A stretch of 64,000 nt of DNA from Bacillota bacterium (GCA_023410875.1 JAEYPH010000043.1:19096-83095); one strand, 5' to 3'. Positions 11,930 through 21,557 are shown, counted from the first letter of the stretch. Translations and numbers: made by a program. The notes: generated by a model not told the origin, from the letters alone.

Positions 11930-13681
11930 TTACTTCTTCTCATCCACAAGATACTTAATGCGCTTCTTGTAGTGGGTGTGCAGCAGCTCGTGCGCCTTGT
12001 GGCCGCCGGGCTCGCCCAGGAACTCCTTGTAAATCTTCGTGATGGAGGGGTTCTCGTGGCTCTTGCGCAGCGGCAGGCTCTCGTCCTCGGCATACACTGC
12101 CTTGGCACGTTCTTTACGTACGTCGGTGTGGAATTTCACCTCATCGCTGACCAGAGGCTGTCCGCCGCCGGTCACGCAGCCGCCGGGGCAGGCCATGATC
12201 TCGATGAAGTCGTACTGCTTCTCGCCGCTGCGGATGCTCTCCAGCAGCTTCTTGGCGTTGCCGGTGCCATGGGCCACGGCCACGCGCACGTCCAGATCGC
12301 CGAGCTTCACAGTGGCTTCCTTGATGCCCTGAGTGCCGCGGACCGACTCGAACTCCACCTTCTCCAGCGGCTTGCCGGTGACGACCTCGGCCACGGTGCG
12401 CAGCGCCGCTTCCATAACGCCGCCGGTGGCGCCGAAGATGACGGCCGCGCCGGTGGAATCGCCGAAGATGTCGTCAAAGTTGCCGTCGGGCAGGCGCACA
12501 AAGTCGATGTTGGCCTGGCGGATCATGCGGGCCAGCTCGCGGGTCGTGATGGAGATGTCTACATCGGCGTAGCCGGTGGAGGAAAGCTCGGGCCGGGCGG
12601 CTTCGAACTTCTTGGCCGTGCAGGGCATCACGCTTACGACGACGATGTCCGCCGGGTCGATGCCGTTCATTTCGGCATAGTAGCTCTTGAGCACTGCGCC
12701 GGTCATCTGCTGGGGGCTCTTGCACGTGGAAAGGTTGTCCAGAAAATCCGGGAAGAAATGCTCGGCGTATTTGACCCAGCCGGGGCTGCAGCTGGTGATC
12801 AGCGGCAGCTTGCCGCCTTCCTTGATCCTGTGCAGCAGTTCGGTGCCCTCTTCCATGATGGTCAGGTCCGCGCCGAAATCGGTGTCGAACACCTTGTCAA
12901 AGCCCAGGCGGCGCAGCGCTGTGGCCATCTTGCCGGTCACACGGCTGCCCATGGGCATGCCGAATTCCTCGCCCAGCGCCACGCGTACGGCCGGCGCCGT
13001 CTCCACCAACACATGCTTGTTGGGGTCCGAGAGCGCCTCCCACACGCTGGCGGTGTCGTCCTTCTCGTAAATGGCTCCTACCGGGCAGGCCTGGATGCAC
13101 TGGCCGCAGTTGATGCAGGGCACCTCGCCCAGGCTCTTCTCGAAAGCTGGGGCCACGATCGTATCGAAGCCGCGCTCGGTGGCGCCGATGACGCTGACCT
13201 GCTGGATATCCTGACACGCGGCGATGCAGCGGCGGCACAGCACGCACTTGTTGGCGTCGCGCACGATGGACGGCGAGGAAGTGTCCTTCTTATAATTTTT
13301 GGAGGCGCCGGTGAAGTGCAGCTCTTCCACGCCCAGCTCGCTGGACAGGCGCTGCAGCTCGCACTTGCCGCTGCGGATGCAGGTCAGACAGGTCTTCTCA
13401 TGGTTGGAGAGAATGAGCTCCAGGTTGGTCTTGCGGGCCTGCTTGACCAGCGGCGTGTTGGTCTTGACGTCCATACCGTTTTCCGCCGGGAGCATGCAGG
13501 AGGCCATGATGCGGTTGCCCAGCGCCACGACGCAGATGCGGCAAGCGCCGGTGCAGCTGACATCCTTCAGATAGCACAGCGTGGGGATATAAACGCCGAT
13601 CTGGCGCGCGGCCTCCAGCACGGTGGTGCCGCGGGGCACCTCCACCTTGATGCCGTCTATTGTCAAAGTTACGTTTTCCAT
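11930..13681 (-). CDS. hydA: [FeFe]-hydrogenase catalytic subunit HydA (group A, HydABC type)
   Basis: 583 aa. It has an N-terminal 2Fe-2S and 4Fe-4S ferredoxin region (TLCYLKDVSCTGACRICVV, CIRSGKCELQ, CVLCRRCIAAC, CINCGQCIQAC). H-cluster motifs are TSCSPGW (L1 variant), MPCTAKKFE (L2) and EIMACPGGCVTGGGQP (L3). Confidence 0.93.
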   Translation of the reverse strand: MENVTLTIDGIKVEVPRGTTVLEAARQIGVYIPTLCYLKDVSCTGACRICVVALGNRIMASCMLPAENGMDVKTNTPLVKQARKTNLELILSNHEKTCLTCIRSGKCELQRLSSELGVEELHFTGASKNYKKDTSSPSIVRDANKCVLCRRCIAACQDIQQVSVIGATERGFDTIVAPAFEKSLGEVPCINCGQCIQACPVGAIYEKDDTASVWEALSDPNKHVLVETAPAVRVALGEEFGMPMGSRVTGKMATALRRLGFDKVFDTDFGADLTIMEEGTELLHRIKEGGKLPLITSCSPGWVKYAEHFFPDFLDNLSTCKSPQQMTGAVLKSYYAEMNGIDPADIVVVSVMPCTAKKFEAARPELSSTGYADVDISITTRELARMIRQANIDFVRLPDGNFDDIFGDSTGAAVIFGATGGVMEAALRTVAEVVTGKPLEKVEFESVRGTQGIKEATVKLGDLDVRVAVAHGTGNAKKLLESIRSGEKQYDFIEIMACPGGCVTGGGQPLVSDEVKFHTDVRKERAKAVYAEDESLPLRKSHENPSITKIYKEFLGEPGGHKAHELLHTHYKKRIKYLVDEKK

Positions 13682-13696
13682 CGGTCACACGCTCCC

Positions 13697-15487
13697 TTAC
13701 TTCTTCGAAATGGCCTTGAACCGGCAGGCGTCCATGCACGCGCCGCACTTGATGCACTTGCTCTGGTCGATCAGGTGCTTGGCCTTGCGCTCGCCGGAAA
13801 TGGCGTTGGTCGGGCAGTTGCGCGCGCACAGACCGCAGCCGATGCACTTGTCGTCGATCACAAAGCTCAGCAGAGCCTTGCAATGGCCGGCAGGGCAGCG
13901 CTTCTCGCGGATGTGGGCCTCGTACTCGCCGCGGAAATACTTGATCGTGGACAGCACCGGGTTGGGCGCGGTCATGCCTAGATTGCACAGCGCGGTCTTC
14001 TGTATACTCTGACCCAGCGCTTCCAGCGCTTCAATGTCGCCTTCCTTGCCGCGGCCTTCCACGATGCGCTCCAGAATCTCCAACATGCGCTTGGTGCCGA
14101 TGCGGCACGGCACGCACTTGCCGCAGCTCTCGTCCACGGTGAAATCCAGGAAGAAGCGGGCGATGTCCACCATGCAGGTGTCCTCGTCCATGACGATCAG
14201 ACCGCCGGAGCCCATCATGGAGCCGATGGCCATCAGCGATTCATAATCGATGGGTGTGTCCAGATACTGCGGCGGGATGCAGCCGCCGGAAGGACCGCCG
14301 GTCTGCGCGGCCTTGAACTTCTTGCCGCCGGGGATGCCGCCGCCGATCTCATAGATGATCTCGCGCAGCGTGGTGCCCATGGGCACTTCCACGAGGCCGG
14401 TGTTGACGATCTTGCCGCCCAACGCGAAAACCTTGGTGCCCTTGGATTTCTCGGTGCCGATGGACGCGAACCACTGGGGACCGTTGATGATGATCTGCGG
14501 GATGTTGGCCAGCGTCTCCACGTTGTTGATGACCGTGGGCTTGCCGAACACACCCTTGTTGGCCGGGAACGGCGGCTTGGGCCGCGGCTCGCCGCGATGG
14601 CCTTCGATGGAGGCCAGCAGCGCGGTTTCTTCACCGCACACGAAGGCACCGGCGCCCAGGCGCAGGTCGATGTCAAAGTTGAAGCCCGTGCCGAAAATGT
14701 CCGTTCCCAACAGGCCGTACTCGCGGGCCTGCTTGATCGCGATGTTCAGGCGCTGCACAGCGATCGGGTACTCGGCACGCACGTAGATATAACCCTGGTC
14801 GGCGCCGATGCAATAGCCGGCGATGGCCATGGCTTCCAGCACGGCGTGGGGGTCGCCTTCCAGTACGGAACGGTCCATGAAGGCGCCGGGGTCGCCTTCG
14901 TCGGCGTTGCATACGACGTACTTTTTATCGCTGACAGGCTTGCTGGCGAATTCCCACTTCTGCCCGCAGGAGAAGCCCGCGCCTCCGCGGCCGCGCAGGC
15001 CGGATTCCTTCATAAGGTCGATGACCTGCTTGGGCGTCATCTCGGTGAGCACTTTTGCCAGCGCCTTGTAGCCGTCCAGTGCGATGTATTCCTCGATGTT
15101 CTCCGGATCGATCACGCCGCAGTTGCGCAGCGCAATGCGCATCTGCTTGCGATAAAAGCCGATGTCATCCAGCGAGTTGGCCTCGTGGGTCGCGGCTACG
15201 TCCTTATAAATCAGGCGATCGACCAGGCGACCCTTGATCAGGTGCTCCTCGACGATTTCGTCCACGTCATCCACTTTGACTTTGCTGTAGAAAGCGCCCT
15301 CGGGATACACGATGACGACCGGGCCGCTCTCGCACAGGCCGAAGCAGCCGGTGCGCACGATCTTGACCTCGTCCTGCAAGTTCTTTTCCTTGATCAATGC
15401 CTCAAAACGGTTGTGAATATACAGCGAGCTGGCCGACGTGCAGCCCGTGCCGCCGCATACCAGCACATGTGCCCTGTGAAATACCAT
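13697..15487 (-). CDS. hydB: NADH-binding flavoprotein subunit HydB (NuoF-like)
   Basis: 596 aa. N-terminal thioredoxin-like 2Fe-2S region (HVLVCGGTGC). NuoF core with GRGGAGFSCGQKW, ADEGDPGAF and ESCGKCVPCR. C-terminal 2x[4Fe-4S] region (CIGCGLCARNCP, CIKCGACMDAC). Confidence 0.93.
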   Translation of the reverse strand: MVFHRAHVLVCGGTGCTSASSLYIHNRFEALIKEKNLQDEVKIVRTGCFGLCESGPVVIVYPEGAFYSKVKVDDVDEIVEEHLIKGRLVDRLIYKDVAATHEANSLDDIGFYRKQMRIALRNCGVIDPENIEEYIALDGYKALAKVLTEMTPKQVIDLMKESGLRGRGGAGFSCGQKWEFASKPVSDKKYVVCNADEGDPGAFMDRSVLEGDPHAVLEAMAIAGYCIGADQGYIYVRAEYPIAVQRLNIAIKQAREYGLLGTDIFGTGFNFDIDLRLGAGAFVCGEETALLASIEGHRGEPRPKPPFPANKGVFGKPTVINNVETLANIPQIIINGPQWFASIGTEKSKGTKVFALGGKIVNTGLVEVPMGTTLREIIYEIGGGIPGGKKFKAAQTGGPSGGCIPPQYLDTPIDYESLMAIGSMMGSGGLIVMDEDTCMVDIARFFLDFTVDESCGKCVPCRIGTKRMLEILERIVEGRGKEGDIEALEALGQSIQKTALCNLGMTAPNPVLSTIKYFRGEYEAHIREKRCPAGHCKALLSFVIDDKCIGCGLCARNCPTNAISGERKAKHLIDQSKCIKCGACMDACRFKAISKK

Positions 15488-15513
15488 AGTCCTTCCCCCT
15501 ATCCTGCGCTTGC

Positions 15514-15894
15514 TTACGCTTTTACTTCTTCATAATGGCCGATCGTGTATTCGCGCACCGGCTTGCCGTTGACGATGTGCTCCGCGACGATGCGCGACAC
15601 CATCTCCGGGCCGACCTTCACATAGGTCACCTTGTCCTCGCCGGGGCGGTAAACCTCCACGATGGGCTCCAGGCGGCACACGCCGATGCAGCCGGTCTGT
15701 GACACGGTCACGTCGGCCAGGCTGCGCTTGGCCACTTCGTCCATCATCGCCAGCAGCACAGGGCGTGCGCCGGCGGCGATGCCGCATGTGGCCATGCCCA
15801 CGACGATGCGGGTGCCGGTGCCGCGGTCACGGCGGATGTTGACGGTTTCCAGAGCTCTTTTGCGGATGGCTTCCAGTTCCTGTACGCTCTTCAT
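15514..15894 (-). CDS. Thioredoxin-like [2Fe-2S] ferredoxin (HydD/HndB-like small subunit)
   Basis: MKSVQELEAIRKRA...IVVGMATCGIAAGA...SQTGCIGVCRLEPIV. Its start at 15894 overlaps the upstream stop in an ATGA arrangement. Confidence 0.75.
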   Translation of the reverse strand: MKSVQELEAIRKRALETVNIRRDRGTGTRIVVGMATCGIAAGARPVLLAMMDEVAKRSLADVTVSQTGCIGVCRLEPIVEVYRPGEDKVTYVKVGPEMVSRIVAEHIVNGKPVREYTIGHYEEVKA

Positions 15895-16445
15895 GCTTGC
15901 GATCCTCCATGCAAATCGTTCTCGCCTTCCAACAGGCACTCTTTGATCCATTGGGCCACTTCCGGCAGATCCAGCGGCACATCGCCCAGCGCTGTGCGGA
16001 TATCTTCAGTGCTAAACTCGAATTTGCGGCCATTCACGCTGTGGTTCAGGCGGAAGTCCAGTTCCGGGTTGGCGCTCACCAGCAGAAACACCGTGGCTGC
16101 CAGGTCTCCCAGGGGCCGGCGGTCGATGTGCCCCAGACGGTAGCTGCCCTCCAGCGTGGTTCCTTGCCCTGGCTGTGAGCTTAGCCGAAAGGCGCCGCCG
16201 CATTGCAGGCAGCCTTCGCGGAACATCGGGATGCCCAGGCCCACCTTCCTCGTGCTGCGGCTGGTCACAAACGGGTCCTGCACCCGCTGGGCCTGTTCGA
16301 CGCTCATACCGCAGCCGTCATCGGCAATGCGCACCGTGAGCAAGTCTTCTGCGCTGCTCTCCTCCACATCGATACGGATGTGCCGCGCGCCGGCGGTGAT
16401 GGCGTTCTGCGCCAGGTCGAGGATGTGCAGCGATATCTCGGTCAT
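15891..16445 (-). CDS. Stand-alone GHKL (histidine-kinase-like) ATPase domain protein embedded in the hydrogenase operon
   Basis: Has an N-box (HILDLAQNAITAG), a G1 box (DDGCGM) and a G2 box (KVGLGIPM). There is no DHp/phospho-acceptor His domain and no TM segment. Confidence 0.75.
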   Translation of the reverse strand: MTEISLHILDLAQNAITAGARHIRIDVEESSAEDLLTVRIADDGCGMSVEQAQRVQDPFVTSRSTRKVGLGIPMFREGCLQCGGAFRLSSQPGQGTTLEGSYRLGHIDRRPLGDLAATVFLLVSANPELDFRLNHSVNGRKFEFSTEDIRTALGDVPLDLPEVAQWIKECLLEGENDLHGGSQA

Positions 16446-16448
16446 GCC

Positions 16449-16922
16449 TTACTTGTATTTGGCGAGAATGCCCGGCACCTCGTCAGCGGTCAGTCGTCCG
16501 TAGACGTCGTCACCCACCATGAGCACCGGAGCCAGACCGCAGCAGCCCAGGCAGCGGGTCTGCAGCAGCGTGAACTTGCCGTCGGGCGTCGTTTTGCCGG
16601 GCTTCACCTTCAACTCCTGAGCCAGGCGGTCCAGTACCTTTTCGGAACCCTTGACGTAGCAGGCCGTGCCCATGCACACGCTGATGACGTGCTCGCCGTT
16701 GCCTTCCAGCGTGAACTGTGAGTAGAAAGTCGCCACGCCGTAAATTTCGGTCAGCGGGATGTTCAGGCCTTCGGAAATGCGCACCTGCACCTCGATGGGC
16801 AGGAAGCCGAAAATCTCCTGAGCCGCCTGCATGACCGGCATCAACGGGCCATCGGTGTGCTGATAGCTTGCGATGACCGCGTCAAGCTTGTCGAATTTTT
16901 CTTTTTCCTTGCGAACGTCCAT
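16449..16922 (-). CDS. hydC: NuoE-like [2Fe-2S] subunit HydC
   Basis: 157 aa. Sequence ...SVCMGTACYVKGSEKVL...LQTRCLGCCGLAPVLMV shows the thioredoxin-like NuoE Cys pattern. It is the first gene of the hyd structural operon. Confidence 0.9.
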   Translation of the reverse strand: MDVRKEKEKFDKLDAVIASYQHTDGPLMPVMQAAQEIFGFLPIEVQVRISEGLNIPLTEIYGVATFYSQFTLEGNGEHVISVCMGTACYVKGSEKVLDRLAQELKVKPGKTTPDGKFTLLQTRCLGCCGLAPVLMVGDDVYGRLTADEVPGILAKYK

Positions 16923-16973
16923 TCCAGGTCCCCCTTCTATGTTTGGAAGCTTTTCCGAACAATATGAACGGGC

Positions 16974-16991
16974 TTGTTAATTTCTTAACAT
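16974..16991. promoter_or_regulatory. Candidate Rex (redox-sensing repressor) operator upstream of hydC
   Basis: TTGTTAATTTCTTAACAT matches the clostridial Rex consensus TTGTTAA-N4-TTAACAA at 17 of 18 positions. It lies 52-69 nt upstream of the hydC start and just downstream of a TGTTAAAAT extended -10 (minus strand, 17004-17012). Confidence 0.5.
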
Positions 16992-17143
16992 TCCCGCTTT
17001 GTTATTTTAACATATTACGCGTTTATTTGCACCTGTTTTTTGCACAAGTTCGATAAAAGTTTCACGAGCAGAAACTGTGAAGTTCCACTAAAAAATGTAC
17101 CGGAATCACAATTTCGAGTAAAATGGTCGGCTTTAGCGGCCAA

Positions 17144-17833
17144 TCAGGACTGCCGCAGCAGTTCGTTCAATATGTCTGGTATGCTGGCTGTGGCCGTACA
17201 AAGCGGAAAGCCGAACTCCAAAATGTCTTGCAACCGATGAGCATCGGACGAACGAATAGGACGGTACTGTGGATCAAGTTCGGGTTTTTGCGTAACCTCC
17301 ATAACCCGCGCGTGCAGACCCGGCGGAATGAAGCCCAGATTGGCCAGCAAGCTGCTTTCACCGCGGTCGATGTGGGCGGGAACCAGCACGCCGCCGCGGG
17401 CCTTGGCCTCGCGCTCTACCGCCTCCAGCGGCAGCGCCACCGCCTGCAGCAGCCAGCGCGGGCATTCCCCCGCCGGCGCGTCGTCGGCGTCCACGATGAT
17501 CTGCCGGCCAAAAAAATCCGAACGATTGCGCACGAAACTTTGGTTCTGCTCCAGCAGCACGCAGAAATCCTGTAGCGCATCCAGAGCCGGGAAATAGCAT
17601 AGCGCGTGGATTTCCTCCTGCGTGGTGACCTCCACGCCGGGCAGAAACAACAGGCCGAAATCGGAACAGGCCTGAGCACAAACCCCGCTGTTGGCACAGG
17701 CGTTGTGGTCGGTCACGGAAATGGCGTCCAAACCCCGCAGGCTGGCCATCGCGGCGATGTTGTATGGGGTCATGTCGTCGTCGGCACAGGGCGAAAGGCA
17801 GGAGTGGATGTGCAAATCCACGTGGAGCGTCAT
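17144..17833 (-). CDS. PHP-domain phosphoesterase
   Basis: MTLHVDLHIHSCLSPCADDDMTPYNIAAMASLRGLDAISVTDHN is a canonical PHP N-terminus. It overlaps the upstream DRTGG gene by 4 nt. Confidence 0.8.
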   Translation of the reverse strand: MTLHVDLHIHSCLSPCADDDMTPYNIAAMASLRGLDAISVTDHNACANSGVCAQACSDFGLLFLPGVEVTTQEEIHALCYFPALDALQDFCVLLEQNQSFVRNRSDFFGRQIIVDADDAPAGECPRWLLQAVALPLEAVEREAKARGGVLVPAHIDRGESSLLANLGFIPPGLHARVMEVTQKPELDPQYRPIRSSDAHRLQDILEFGFPLCTATASIPDILNELLRQS

Positions 17834-18168
17834 TTCCCGATCCCCAATGCGTACAGCATACCGCTGAGCTCATAACCTGAGCGTGGCGAACAGAGCACCG
17901 CGATGCCCTCGTCGGCGGCCTTCTTGAGCACGTCCGGGGGCATGGCGCAACCCTCGGCCAGAAGGATACAGGCGAACTCGTGCAGCGAGGCCACCGCGAC
18001 GACGTTCATATGGGTCTGCACGGTGATCCATGCCATGCCGGCGCTACCGCGGGCCATCACCCAGCTCAGCAGATCGCAGCATATGCCGCCGGTGATGGGC
18101 CGGTCGGTGGGAGCGTCAGGCGTTAACAGCGTAAATTCACCGGTGTCGAAAAGTTCCTTGAGCGTCAT
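17830..18168 (-). CDS. DRTGG domain protein
   Basis: 112 aa. ...ITGGICCDLLSWVMARGSAGMAWITVQTHMNVVAVASLHEFACILLAEG...GIAVLCSP resembles the DRTGG small regulatory fold found next to sensory hydrogenases. Confidence 0.7.
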   Translation of the reverse strand: MTLKELFDTGEFTLLTPDAPTDRPITGGICCDLLSWVMARGSAGMAWITVQTHMNVVAVASLHEFACILLAEGCAMPPDVLKKAADEGIAVLCSPRSGYELSGMLYALGIGK

Positions 18169-18177
18169 GGGTCCTCC

Positions 18178-19461
18178 CTATTGCATATCGCTCAGGTCTT
18201 TCATTTGCCGAGCGAGGTTGTTTACTTTTTCCTTGAGCTTGAAGATGCAATCCAGTTCCACCGCCTGACCCTTTACAATGTCCTCGGCCAGCGCACGGCA
18301 CGTGGGTGCGCCGCAGGATCCGCAATCCAGTCCTTTGAAGCCCTCGGTCAGGCGCTCGATGTGTTCCATCATCTCCATGGCCCGCCCGATGTCGTCGTCC
18401 AGCTTGAGTACCGGCTGCTCGGGCAGCGAGCGTGTAAAGGCAATATCCATGTCCGGCGTTTCCGGCCGGGCCGGCTTCGTGCTCTGCTGCATCTTCTCCA
18501 CCAGGCGGCGGATGCGGTTCTTGGCCACATAGGCGTTTTCAAAGGTCAGAGCGCCGCCCACGCAGCCGCCCTGGCAGGCCAGGCCCTCGAAGAACTGCAG
18601 GTCGGAAAGCTTGTTGTCCTCTATTTGCTCCAGCACGCGGATGACGTTGTGGATGCCGTCCACGGCCAGCGCGTTGTCGCAGCCCACAGCCGTGCTCTCG
18701 CCGCCGGAATTGGCCCAGCCGATGCCGGCGAAGCTGGCGCGGTCGCCCTGGAATTCCTCTCCGGGATGGCGCATCTGGCCGCTCAGCAGGCCGTAGATTT
18801 CCAGAATGGAGATTGCCCCGTCCACATTGGATTTTTCCAGACCCAACGGATTGCGTATGCTGGTCATCTTGGCTGGGCACGGCGTCAGGAAGAACGCGCC
18901 GATCTGCTCGATGGGCACGCCCCTCTCCTTGGAAAACTGTTCCTTGGCCAGTTTGGCTGCGACCTCCACCGGGGCCAGCAGGTCCACAACGTTGGGCAGC
19001 AGGTCGGGAAAGCGCACCTGGATCAGCCGTACGACCGCCGGGCACGCCGAGGAGATCAGCGGCAACGGGTGGTCATGGTCGCTCACAAGCAGCTTGCGCA
19101 TCTGGGCGCTCACGATGTCGGCGCCGCGGGCTACTTCATACACCCAGTCGAAGCCCATGGCCACCAGCCCGCCCAAAAGCGAGCCGATGGAGTTCAGGTT
19201 TTTGAACTGGCCATAGAGCGAGGGCGCCGGCAGAGCGATCTTGTATGGGAAGGATGAGATGACGCTGATGTTGTCCGTTGTGGCGATCTTCGCGTGATAG
19301 GGGCATGTGCGGATGCACTCGCCGCAATCCACGCACCGCTCGGCGATGATGTGGGCCTTGCCGCCCCGTACGCGGATGGCCTCGGTGGGGCAGCGCTTGA
19401 GGCAATTGGTGCATCCTTTGCATTTTTCGCTGTCCAGCGTCACACTGTGGAAATACTTCAT
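18178..19461 (-). CDS. Putative sensory [FeFe]-hydrogenase-like protein (HydS-like, group C type, no PAS domain)
   Basis: N-terminal 2x[4Fe-4S] region (CKGCTNCLKRCP, CVDCGECIRTCP). Degenerate H-cluster motifs are ISSACPAV, LTPCPAKMTS and FEGLACQGGCVGG. A C-terminal CGSCGAPTC-x16-C motif is present. Start MKYFHS (Met19 of the ORF) is preceded by GGTGAGG. Confidence 0.85.
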   Translation of the reverse strand: MKYFHSVTLDSEKCKGCTNCLKRCPTEAIRVRGGKAHIIAERCVDCGECIRTCPYHAKIATTDNISVISSFPYKIALPAPSLYGQFKNLNSIGSLLGGLVAMGFDWVYEVARGADIVSAQMRKLLVSDHDHPLPLISSACPAVVRLIQVRFPDLLPNVVDLLAPVEVAAKLAKEQFSKERGVPIEQIGAFFLTPCPAKMTSIRNPLGLEKSNVDGAISILEIYGLLSGQMRHPGEEFQGDRASFAGIGWANSGGESTAVGCDNALAVDGIHNVIRVLEQIEDNKLSDLQFFEGLACQGGCVGGALTFENAYVAKNRIRRLVEKMQQSTKPARPETPDMDIAFTRSLPEQPVLKLDDDIGRAMEMMEHIERLTEGFKGLDCGSCGAPTCRALAEDIVKGQAVELDCIFKLKEKVNNLARQMKDLSDMQ

Positions 19462-19572
19462 AACCTCACCTTGTTGCATCCAGAATACAATGTTGTACAT
19501 TCTAATGCAACTCAAACAAGCTTTGAGGCTGTCGGGCTAGATGCATAAAGTGCAAACTTCAGATAGCTGGTA

Positions 19573-19727
19573 AGGATTTCGCGCCTTTCTTGGCGCGACC
19601 TGCGCACCATCTCGCCGGCATCCAGCCGGCTGAAGCGGCAAAGCCGCTTCCGATGGTGCTGGGCTGCGGCGCATCCTGCGCAAGGGCCAAAGGGCTTTCC
19701 GATCGCCCTTTGGAAACCTTCGGCCTC
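19573..19727 (-). repeat. Structured intergenic repeat, copy A (core 19687-19724)
   Basis: The reverse complement carries the invariant core GCCGAAGGTTTCCAAAGGGCGATCGGAAAGCCCTTTGG and the 3' block GCGAAATCC that are shared with copies B, C and D. It lies between the GHKL ATPase gene and the HydS-like gene. Confidence 0.85.
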
Positions 19728-19780
19728 TATCTGATTATTATTTATGCAATCATGCCATTAACACAACAGCCCTTATATCC

Positions 19781-20209
19781 TTAGCGCAGCGGAAAGCGCA
19801 TGGTGACCGTGGTCCCCTGCGCTCCGGTCTGCAGCTCAAATTCGCCGGCGCACCGAGCCATATTGGGCAAGCCCATGCCCGCGCCGAAGCCCAGCTCCCG
19901 CACGCTGTCCGGCGCTGTGGAAAAGCCCTCGGTCATCGCCTGCTCCACATCGGTGATGCCCGGTCCGCTGTCCGAGGCGATCAGCGTGATGCGGTCGCGG
20001 CTGACCGACAGCGTCAGCTGCCCGCCGTGGCTGTGGATGATGATGTTGAGCTCTGCCTCGTAACTGGCAATGGAGATGCGCCGTACCATCTGTGTTTCGA
20101 TGCCCAACCGTTTGAGCACATCCTTGATGGCGGCGGACGCATCGCCGGCGGCGTTGAAATCGCCGGCGACCACCGGATAGCGTTCGATCAGGCTGCCCTC
20201 ACTGCCCAT
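19781..20209 (-). CDS. GHKL ATPase / anti-sigma-factor-like Ser kinase domain protein (RsbW/SpoIIAB-like)
   Basis: MGSEGSLIERYPV...ASYEAELNIIIHS...DSGPGITDVEQA...GFGAGMGLPNM shows HATPase_c-type N, G1 and G2 boxes. I used the internal Met24 of ORF 19781..20278, which overlaps the upstream DRTGG gene by 11 nt. Confidence 0.7.
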   Translation of the reverse strand: MGSEGSLIERYPVVAGDFNAAGDASAAIKDVLKRLGIETQMVRRISIASYEAELNIIIHSHGGQLTLSVSRDRITLIASDSGPGITDVEQAMTEGFSTAPDSVRELGFGAGMGLPNMARCAGEFELQTGAQGTTVTMRFPLR

Positions 20210-20558
20210 TTCCCCTGCCTTCTCCGCGAAGGCCGTTGTTGTAGAGTATGCCGCAGGCGGTGAACAGCGTGTGTTCACACCGCATCACGGCGATCCCTCG
20301 TTCCCCGGCCATCTGCAGGATTTCATCACTTGGTATTTTCCCGCGGACGAAAACGATCAAGGTCAGGTCCAGCATTTCCGCTGTGCGCACCACGTGGGGG
20401 TTCGTAAGGCCGGTCAGCAGGCAGGTCTTGTCGCTCACGCTGGCCAGCACGTCGCTCATCAGATCGCTGCCGCAGGCGGAGCGGACTTCGTGATCCAGCT
20501 TGTCCTCCCCGCACAGCAGCTCGGCGTCCAAAAGGGGAATCATGTCCTTGACCTTCAT
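20199..20558 (-). CDS. DRTGG domain protein
   Basis: 119 aa. ...GSDLMSDVLASVSDKTCLLTGLTNPHVVRTAEMLDLTLIVFVRGKIPSDEILQMAGERGIAVM. It is the first gene of the regulatory cluster. Confidence 0.7.
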   Translation of the reverse strand: MKVKDMIPLLDAELLCGEDKLDHEVRSACGSDLMSDVLASVSDKTCLLTGLTNPHVVRTAEMLDLTLIVFVRGKIPSDEILQMAGERGIAVMRCEHTLFTACGILYNNGLRGEGRGNGQ

Positions 20559-20580
20559 CTTTCGTCCTCTATATCGGAAA

Positions 20581-21477
20581 TTAAGTACTCTTCAATTTCT
20601 GCTCCAATTTGAGCAGTATTTCTATGATATTATATTTTAACCCGGAAAGCAACGCCGCCGAATCACCGCCGCCGGCTTGCGCCAGAGCGTTCAAATTGCT
20701 GGCGCTTTCGGTGAGCGCCTCATGCAGCTTGACAATCTGCGGTGTGCTCGGGTGCCCCAGCGCCTGGGTCAGCGCGTCGTCGGTCTCGGTGAACTTGCGG
20801 GCACTGGCGCTGATGACGGCCAGATAGTCGTCCGCGCTCCCCTGCTTTGCCTGTGCCTTCTTCTGCGTGTCGATCAGCACGACGATCTGGCTTTGCATCA
20901 CGAGCAAGGCGCTGCGGATTGTGGCGATCTGCTCCTTTGTGGCGGTAACCCTCCAGGTGATGCCGCTGACCTCCACCTTGAGCATGCTGGCGTCGGCGAC
21001 TGAGCCGTTCTTGTATTGGTCGCGCACGGCCTTGGCATCGGCCTGCCCATAATACACCGAATCCACAACGCGGAACTGATCGCCGTCGCGCAGGATGTAG
21101 CCGGAGGCGCCGGAGGGCTTCATCTGGTCGGCCAGCGCCCGGGCGTTCTCTTCCTTGTTGAACACGCCCAGCTGCACACCATACAGCGTGATCGGGTTCA
21201 GCTTGATCTCCTCGGTGCCGCTGCCGGATACCGCTGTCACGGTTGCTGTGGCGGAAGCCGAAGCCGACGGCGTCGGCGACAGCGTAACGGCCGGGGTTGT
21301 TTTCATGGCCGACGGCGAGGGCGAGGCGGTACCGTCGCCAAAGAGGATGGAGCCGATGTCCAGCGCCTGGAAAACATAGATGAACAACGCGACCACCACC
21401 AGCAGCAATACGATGGAAGCCACGCCAGCCGAGTCGTTCTGCTTCTTCTTACCACGGGCACTTCTTCTTCGGCGCAT
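20581..21477 (-). CDS. SPOR-domain membrane-anchored protein
   Basis: Basic N-terminus (MRRRRSARGKKK) plus one TM helix, then a Ser/Thr/Pro/Ala-rich (low-complexity) linker. The SPOR-like block is YGVQLGVFNKEENARALADQMKPSGASGYILRDGDQFRVV, followed by a helical C-terminal half. Confidence 0.65.
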   Translation of the reverse strand: MRRRRSARGKKKQNDSAGVASIVLLLVVVALFIYVFQALDIGSILFGDGTASPSPSAMKTTPAVTLSPTPSASASATATVTAVSGSGTEEIKLNPITLYGVQLGVFNKEENARALADQMKPSGASGYILRDGDQFRVVDSVYYGQADAKAVRDQYKNGSVADASMLKVEVSGITWRVTATKEQIATIRSALLVMQSQIVVLIDTQKKAQAKQGSADDYLAVISASARKFTETDDALTQALGHPSTPQIVKLHEALTESASNLNALAQAGGGDSAALLSGLKYNIIEILLKLEQKLKST

Positions 21478-21557
21478 TGTACATTCCTCCAGCAAGGTGT
21501 TATGATACAGGATATTCATCGAACCGGTATTTATGTATTCATACAGGAGGAATTTAT

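Follow-up and report, generated by a model that had tools for sequence, protein, structure and literature searches.

Group D (M2e) [FeFe] hydrogenases have been studied intensely by spectroscopy as presumed H2 sensors. The group was defined with TamHydS of Thermoanaerobacter mathranii: two [4Fe-4S] clusters, an H-domain and a C-terminal Cx2Cx4Cx16C motif are present and a PAS domain is missing, which sets it apart from the PAS-bearing group C; C299 is lost, M353 is changed to Ser or Thr, and M497 is replaced, by Leu in TamHydS (PMC8163306). Reversible H+/H2 conversion by TamHydS proceeds at low rates and with high H2 affinity (PMC8163306). The neighbours of TamHydS named in the literature are just a histidine-kinase (HK)-like ATPase and an 'AraC regulator' (PMC8163306, PMC13104023). 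The interaction partners of HydS, called critical, were in April 2026 still to be identified (PMC13104023). Here, a cluster of five minus-strand genes (DRTGG1, GHKL1, HydS-like, DRTGG2 and PHP) is analysed, located at positions 17144-20558 of a 64,000-nucleotide (nt) stretch of DNA from a Bacillota bacterium (GCA_023410875.1, JAEYPH010000043.1:19096-83095). This whole stretch is referred to below as the window. The five genes and a sixth, GHKL2, probably make up a conserved cassette that accompanies a putative H2 sensor, a hydrogenase of group D (M2e); the cassette most likely controls the adjacent hydrogenase HydABCD.

Results

Gene order across Bacillota

A HydS profile was scanned against one genome per species, yielding 80 loci, of which 65 had enough flanking DNA to be evaluated. 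For a sample independent of HydS, a PHP profile was used to search 301 evenly drawn Bacillota genomes; 100 loci were fetched and annotated using family hidden Markov models. The sampled genomes are mutually related, and the locus figures given here are counts, not statistics.

All five genes were present in the same order in 60 of the 65 evaluable HydS-anchored loci, and a 61st locus differed by fusion of DRTGG1 to GHKL1. In 39 of these 65 loci, hydC and GHKL2 were found directly downstream. The PHP search returned an orthologue in 103 of the 301 genomes, one in each, and HydS adjoined PHP in 96 of the 100 PHP-anchored loci. Conservation of the neighbourhood, on which an initial annotation of the window had staked its reading of the five genes, was thus recovered from both anchors.

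GHKL2 was found in 97 of the 100 PHP-anchored loci. The gene after PHP was hydC in 69 loci and GHKL2 itself in 22, while PHP and GHKL2 formed a single protein in 6. Where hydCDBA was divergent or absent, GHKL2 stayed with the cassette. GHKL2 is a sixth cassette member, and the six genes travel together across Bacillota. The gene had been described as a third stand-alone GHKL ATPase of the hyd operon; that location is correct, but the gene belongs to the cassette, following PHP or being fused to it in 28 of 100 loci. The window locus is an ordinary member of a widespread family of group D HydS cassettes.

The putative sensor

HydS (18178-19461, minus strand; 427 amino acids) is, by its motifs and domain architecture, a putative sensory [FeFe] hydrogenase of group D (M2e, TamHydS type). 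Two Fer4 domains, an Fe_hyd_lg_C domain (E 7e-31) and an FeS domain (E 2e-10) were detected by Pfam. The last covers a C-terminal Cx2Cx4Cx16C motif, CGSCGAPTCRALAEDIVKGQAVELDC. Following alignment with solved [FeFe] hydrogenases, SSACP corresponds to TSCCP, TPCPAK to MPCxxK, and GLACQGGC (read as GLACQGGCVGG) to ExMACxxGC, so the four H-cluster cysteines are kept. The H-cluster motif cysteines were invariant in 20 homologues. The proton-relay Cys299 is substituted by Ala, M353 by Thr and M497 by Leu, and both framing methionines are gone.

Substitutions in SSACP, TPCPAK and GLACQGG agree with the original description of a hydrogenase-like protein of putative sensory kind with degenerate motifs. 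A catalytic enzyme of group A or B was considered and rejected on these substituted motifs and on scores far under the family cut-offs: on the NCBIfam models for groups A and B1, HydS reached 111 bits against a cut-off of 406 (TIGR02512) and 169 bits against 450 (TIGR04105). The earlier assignment to group C was abandoned, HydS having no PAS domain (Pfam, E<=0.01) and fitting group D/M2e instead. The genome encodes the maturases HydG and HydF and four further Fe_hyd_lg_C genes, and the H-cluster can therefore be assembled.

Gene fusions and exchange of the putative sensor

DRTGG1 and GHKL1 were fused in 7 of the 100 PHP-anchored loci, which belong to two families. At least 120 protein clusters, with identities as low as 42%, contain the same fusion, which databases name 'anti-sigma regulatory factor/RsbT'. 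A more distant cassette was observed on two Joint Genome Institute (JGI) metagenome contigs (L081 and L082), with 46% identity to the DRTGG-GHKL fusion query and the order PHP-GHKL2-hydC; it sits after heterodisulfide-reductase-like genes and a multihaem cytochrome cluster.

The C-terminus of HydS was fused to DRTGG2 in loci L126, L135 and L139, all from one bacterial family, giving proteins of 570-579 amino acids. In these, DRTGG starts about 40 residues past the FeS domain (residues 471-571 in L139). The same three loci carry, about 3 kb upstream of the cassette, a gene for a group C1 hydrogenase with Fe_hyd_lg_C, FeS, PAS, HisKA and HATPase_c domains (L139:12517-14673), thus placing two different putative H2 sensors at one locus. 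In the L139 copy of this neighbour, PAS starts about 20 residues past the FeS domain and occupies residues 376-488.

PHP and GHKL2 were fused in 6 of the 100 loci (425-447 amino acids), and in all six hydCDBA was divergent and without a GHKL gene. The GHKL ATPase of the hyd operon therefore belongs with PHP. Three such fusions were also among the best 150 relatives of GHKL2 in a profile search of 1.8 billion proteins. Taken together, the fusions point to the pairs DRTGG1-GHKL1, HydS-DRTGG2 and PHP-GHKL2. The pairing of the GHKL1 kinase with the PHP phosphoesterase, as originally suggested, is not supported: PHP is joined to GHKL2, and GHKL1 to DRTGG1.

In three loci from three families (L119, L170 and L181), HydS is missing and GHKL1 bears two N-terminal CBS domains. 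DRTGG1, DRTGG2, PHP and GHKL2 are kept in these loci, one of which is still located upstream of hydC, hydD, hydB and hydA. A CBS pair can take the place of HydS.

A single fusion joins the cassette to a hydrogenase subunit: GHKL2 with HydD, found once (L121:8363-9292; 310 amino acids). This protein bears on a reading in which HydS is no sensor but works as a hydrogenase, real though slow, or as a module for electron input, and in which the ATPases and PHP serve maintenance, assembly or activity-gating of HydABCD, with no information on H2 being passed on. The location of GHKL2 between hydC and hydD in the window would fit such a role, as would the alignment of its model, across about 190 columns, with MutL and Topo VI-B, both GHL ATPases, and the reversible H+/H2 conversion catalysed by TamHydS (PMC8163306). 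The rates of TamHydS are low, however, and its H2 affinity is high; HydS can give way to a CBS pair, a kind of module that typically senses ligands; and many sampled genomes with HydA above the A6 cut-off have no cassette, so the enzyme is made without it. This reading is considered highly improbable.

The DRTGG proteins

DRTGG1 (20199-20558, minus strand; 119 amino acids) is a small stand-alone DRTGG protein (Pfam DRTGG, E 4e-5). Its profile matched the DRTGG domain of the CBS-pyrophosphatase structures 3L2B/3L31 (E 5e-5) and AF_1212 (2IOJ). DRTGG2 (17830-18168, minus strand; 112 amino acids; Pfam DRTGG, E 7e-4) is a diverged paralogue, related to DRTGG1 over the full length (hhalign, 99.6% probability); a search with its profile gave no significant solved relative. 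A D-x-[LM]-S-x-V motif with an invariant or nearly invariant serine is common to both paralogues, and R-T of the motif that names the family is lost from DRTGG2. DRTGG1 is likely the regulatory partner of GHKL1, and DRTGG2 likely partners directly with the C-terminus of HydS. Residue 29 of DRTGG1 (ACGSD) is a strictly or nearly invariant cysteine, which could be an extra metal ligand or a redox-sensitive site.

Many DRTGG2 homologues are called AraC by NCBI; the domains found in them were PF07085 (DRTGG), PF02603 (Hpr_kinase_N) or none. No AraC-type helix-turn-helix (HTH) was found by Pfam in the 112 amino acids of DRTGG2, which matched DRTGG only. In two cassette-bearing Thermoanaerobacteraceae genomes, HTH_18 matches were located away from the contigs assigned to the cassette by length or record name. 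Because the AraC-named homologues are HTH-less and the true HTH matches appear to lie elsewhere, the 'AraC regulator' beside TamHydS is very probably a misnamed DRTGG2 and thus an annotation artefact, judging from homologues in other genomes.

The ATPases and the phosphoesterase

GHKL1 (19781-20209, minus strand; 142 amino acids from the ATG) is a stand-alone GHKL protein of the ATPase or Ser-kinase type that resembles SpoIIAB and RsbW (HATPase_c_2, E 2e-10). A search of the Protein Data Bank (PDB) with the single sequence gave no match; the profile matched the SpoIIAB structures 1TIL/1L0O/1TH8 over the full length (E 6e-11) and RsbW (6M36). The RsbW/SpoIIAB likeness noted initially was thereby confirmed. 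On TIGR01925 (spoIIAB), GHKL1 scored 44 bits (E 2e-11), under the cut-off of 135. Residues E51, N55, D80-G82-G84 and G107-G113 of the N, G1 and G2 boxes were invariant in 68 orthologues.

GHKL2 (15891-16445, minus strand; 184 amino acids) is the second stand-alone GHKL ATPase (HATPase_c, E 4e-15, and HATPase_c_3). The catalytic residues were invariant in orthologues. A structural model was obtained with a predicted local distance difference test score (pLDDT) of 90.5. In Foldseek, roughly its first 100 residues aligned with CA domains of histidine kinases, and alignments of about 190 columns were obtained with ATPase fragments of MutL, PMS2 and Topo VI-B. Both GHKL proteins consist of the ATPase domain alone, and neither HisKA nor Response_reg was found in the cluster by Pfam.

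PHP (17144-17833, minus strand; 229 amino acids) is a metal-dependent phosphoesterase of the PHP family (Pfam PHP, E 1.5e-5). Its metal ligands H8, H10, D42, H43, E68, H76, H154, D197 and H199 were invariant in 66 orthologues. Residue 16 (LSPC), beside the HxH metal motif, is a strictly or nearly invariant cysteine and could be an extra metal or redox-sensitive site. The PHP fold was confirmed by Foldseek using a model with pLDDT 96.7. The top matches were EndoQ (5ZB8/7K30; template modelling (TM) score 0.69-0.73), BAD_1165 (3O0F), RNase AM (7UG9/9ETK) and the pAp phosphatase Cv1693 (2YB1), followed within the best 50 by PsfC and Pol III PHP domains; sequence searches gave 2YB1 and 3E0F. No PHP protein phosphatase of the CpsB/YwqE type was among the best 50 Foldseek matches. 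With EndoQ, RNase AM and nucleotide phosphatases as closest relatives, a reading as kinase plus protein phosphatase is weakened. Based on the model, the substrate is more likely a nucleotide or nucleic acid than a phosphoprotein.

These relatives bear directly on the partner-switching circuit proposed in the initial annotation. In such a circuit, GHKL1 would act as a Ser/Thr kinase on a DRTGG protein in the role of the STAS antagonist, PHP would be the opposing phosphatase, and GHKL1 would hold a sigma factor or regulator encoded elsewhere. GHKL1 is most similar to SpoIIAB/RsbW over its full length and has intact ATP-binding boxes, both DRTGG paralogues offer the conserved serine of D-x-[LM]-S-x-V, and the fusion proteins carry an anti-sigma regulatory factor/RsbT name. 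The components of the circuit are nevertheless lacking, no STAS, PP2C/SpoIIE or sigma domain being found in the cluster (Pfam, E<=0.01; the rest of the genome was not searched). PHP, structurally closest to EndoQ, RNase AM and nucleotide phosphatases, had no PHP protein phosphatase among its best 50 matches and is fused to GHKL2 rather than GHKL1. In addition, many lineages have DRTGG and GHKL1 covalently linked, an unusual arrangement if a kinase and its substrate have to exchange partners. Partner switching is therefore regarded as unlikely.

Gene organization in the window

All open reading frames of the minus-strand cluster were found at the limits first reported, and every named domain was confirmed by Pfam. 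The DRTGG and PHP matches of the window proteins fell slightly under the gathering scores, which their orthologues exceeded. Of the junctions, described at first as overlaps of 4-11 nt, two stand: 11 nt between the DRTGG1 stop and the GHKL1 ATG, and 4 nt between DRTGG2 and PHP. HydS and DRTGG2 are separated by a 9-nt gap. A promoter and terminator scan of the minus strand gave nothing convincing inside the cluster, and the operon structure in the window is deduced from gene spacing alone.

The repeat-filled gap between GHKL1 and HydS (19462-19780, minus strand) was confirmed as a spacer of about 320 nt, with a repeat copy rich in GC-rich hairpins. Across 78 related loci, the corresponding spacer had a median length of 35 nt and exceeded 100 nt in just 10. 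The repeat is an insertion outside the conserved cassette. A search of 16800-20800, spacer included, against Rfam gave no meaningful match.

A gene for a SPOR-domain membrane protein (20581-21519, minus strand) stops 22 nt 5' of DRTGG1, and the synteny recurs in 18 of the 80 HydS-anchored loci. Given this spacing, strand and synteny, the cassette may share its transcript.

As first described, the cluster lies directly upstream of the hyd operon: hydC begins after a 221-nt leader and is followed by GHKL2, hydD, hydB and hydA. The NuoE-like [2Fe-2S] subunit HydC is encoded at 16449-16922 (minus strand; 2Fe-2S_thioredx, E 1e-50, and NuoE/HoxE models). GHKL2 starts 3 nt past the hydC stop and overlaps the start of hydD. 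The genes hydD, hydB and hydA (11930-15894, minus strand) encode subunits of a group A6 [FeFe] hydrogenase of the NADH-dependent or bifurcating type. HydD is a thioredoxin-like [2Fe-2S] protein and HydB carries Complex1_51K and NADH_4Fe-4S (Pfam). HydA scored 933 bits against a cut-off of 765 on NF040763 (NADH-dependent group A6 [FeFe] hydrogenase). Most related loci have this same set of hydC, hydD, hydB and hydA genes, again with a GHKL gene following hydC. HydA reads TSCSPGW (12776-12796) against the textbook TSCCPGW. A possible reading of this motif as the sign of a broken enzyme was rejected: the A6 model is passed, and TSCSPGW is the norm for the clade, occurring in 38/38 HydA proteins of the HydS-anchored set (window included) and in 56/60 of the PHP-anchored set.

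Transcriptional control

No HTH, receiver, PAS, HisKA or STAS domain was found in the cluster proteins (Pfam, E<=0.01), in line with the absence of DNA-binding, receiver, PAS and His phospho-acceptor domains reported before. A transcription factor hidden in the cassette was likewise rejected; no protein contains an HTH, and the C-terminal half of GHKL2 matches folds of the MutL and Topo VI-B type rather than DNA-binding domains.

The hydC leader contains a Rex-like box, ATGTTAAGAAATTAACAA, at 16974-16991 on the minus strand, which agrees with TTGTTAA-N4-TTAACAA at 13 of the 14 specified positions. Sites with at least 12/14 agreement were present in 14 of 42 PHP-hydC spacers and in 3 of 410 random 250-nt pieces. 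In the window, no Rex-like box was found upstream of DRTGG1. The genome has a single rex gene, on another contig. Rex is a better candidate than AraC for transcriptional control, through a predicted operator.

Of the 100 loci, 24 have a rex gene no more than 7 kb from the cassette. All 7 sampled loci in which DRTGG1 and GHKL1 are fused have rex immediately upstream of the fusion gene; in the called genes of locus L083, the last 4 nt of rex are also the first of the fusion gene. Such co-location, together with the box in the hydC leader and the enrichment of boxes in PHP-hydC spacers, could mean that the cassette modulates the NADH-sensing repressor Rex itself, for example by binding, so that H2 pressure and NADH/NAD+ would jointly set hydCDBA transcription. 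Yet 76 of the 100 loci have no rex nearby, nor has the window, and the co-location may merely mirror shared regulation of hyd genes. To our knowledge, Rex binds NADH unaided and requires no partner in known systems, which also counts against modulation by the cassette. We regard this as rather improbable.

Discussion

On balance, we favour the reading in which the five genes and GHKL2 are a conserved cassette accompanying a putative H2-sensing hydrogenase of group D, and in which this cassette most likely controls HydABCD. In the mechanism proposed, binding of H2 would alter the conformation of HydS. DRTGG2 would read this change, being placed as PAS is in group C, right after the C-terminal [4Fe-4S] domain. 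A proposed pairing of DRTGG2 with its paralogue DRTGG1 would follow, and DRTGG1 would gate the ATP-dependent, SpoIIAB-like GHKL1. The PHP-GHKL2 pair may form an effector or reset arm. Output would be on the HydABCD protein or on a regulator encoded in trans, and would involve no DNA-binding protein of the cassette; in the window, hydCDBA would be transcribed from its own leader with the Rex-like operator.

Several points weigh against this interpretation. H2 sensing by group D enzymes is a hypothesis of the literature. The C-terminal cluster of TamHydS was not reduced under 1 atm H2 (PMC13104023); a redox relay is therefore unlikely, which leaves room for a conformational role. The HydS-DRTGG2 fusions are confined to one family and may represent one event. 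For about 40% of the HydS-anchored cassettes, hydCDBA does not come next. Finally, HydA above the cut-off of the A6 model was found in 203 of the 301 genomes, against cassette PHP in 103, and the cassette is therefore accessory to the hydrogenase and not required for it.

More tentatively, the genes may represent a new signalling architecture, a possibility to which we give limited credence. A plug-in sensor (group D hydrogenase or CBS pair) would act through a pair of paralogous DRTGG adaptors on a SpoIIAB-like ATPase, and a PHP phosphodiesterase coupled to a MutL-like GHKL ATPase would be the effector. Control of the NADH-linked hydrogenase would then be post-translational or at the RNA/nucleotide level, and no DNA-binding protein would be dedicated to it.

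About one third of the sampled Bacillota genomes carry the cassette, including gut and rumen Clostridia, in which control of H2 production shapes the fermentation balance. In biofuel thermophiles, ethanol yield is shifted by hyd mutations. In full-text literature searches, no paper was found that ties DRTGG or PHP proteins to sensory hydrogenases. From about 180 related loci, testable candidate partners are obtained: the C-terminus of HydS is matched with DRTGG2, the SpoIIAB-like ATPase with DRTGG1, and PHP with GHKL2. An 'AraC regulator' beside HydS, very probably a false lead, is removed.

Compared with known systems, group C proteins (TmHydS, R. albus HydS and HfsB of Thermoanaerobacterium) likewise have an H-domain with a crippled proton path and, C-terminal to it, an FeS domain with a signalling domain behind, and their genes adjoin those of catalytic hydrogenases. 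They have PAS and Ser/Thr kinase/phosphatase or HisKA neighbours, whereas in the window DRTGG2 is a separate gene after FeS. The transducers of the window are DRTGG, the SpoIIAB-like GHKL, PHP and a GHL-like ATPase, where group C has PP2C or HisKA.

With the SpoIIAB-SpoIIAA-SpoIIE and RsbW-RsbV-RsbU modules, the cassette has in common a stand-alone GHKL protein of about 140 amino acids, SpoIIAB being the best solved relative of GHKL1. It differs in that the window locus has no STAS antagonist, PP2C or sigma factor, and in that the partner domain is DRTGG, often fused. The proposed logic is that of HoxBC-HoxJ-HoxA of Cupriavidus necator, where a low-activity hydrogenase serves as H2 sensor over catalytic hydrogenase genes (PMC5707799). 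Its metal site and proteins, however, bear no relation to those of the cassette, and HoxJ (PAS, histidine kinase) and HoxA (DNA-binding response regulator) have no counterpart in the cassette. The CBS-DRTGG insert of family II pyrophosphatase (3L2B/3L31) is the best solved relative of DRTGG1, and the HydS-less cassettes, too, combine CBS with DRTGG. In the pyrophosphatase the unit is an internal regulatory insert of an enzyme, whereas the DRTGG proteins of the cassette are free-standing or fused to the GHKL ATPase or HydS.

The closest counterpart is the TamHydS locus (PMC8163306, PMC13104023). The HydS domain set, the lack of PAS and the active-site substitutions are shared, and both loci are situated upstream of a multimeric group A hydrogenase and include a histidine-kinase-like ATPase gene beside HydS. 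The window locus differs by the repeat insertion between GHKL1 and HydS. HydS of the window is about 55% identical to the Thermoanaerobacteraceae copies, and at the level of the locus there is no essential difference from TamHydS.

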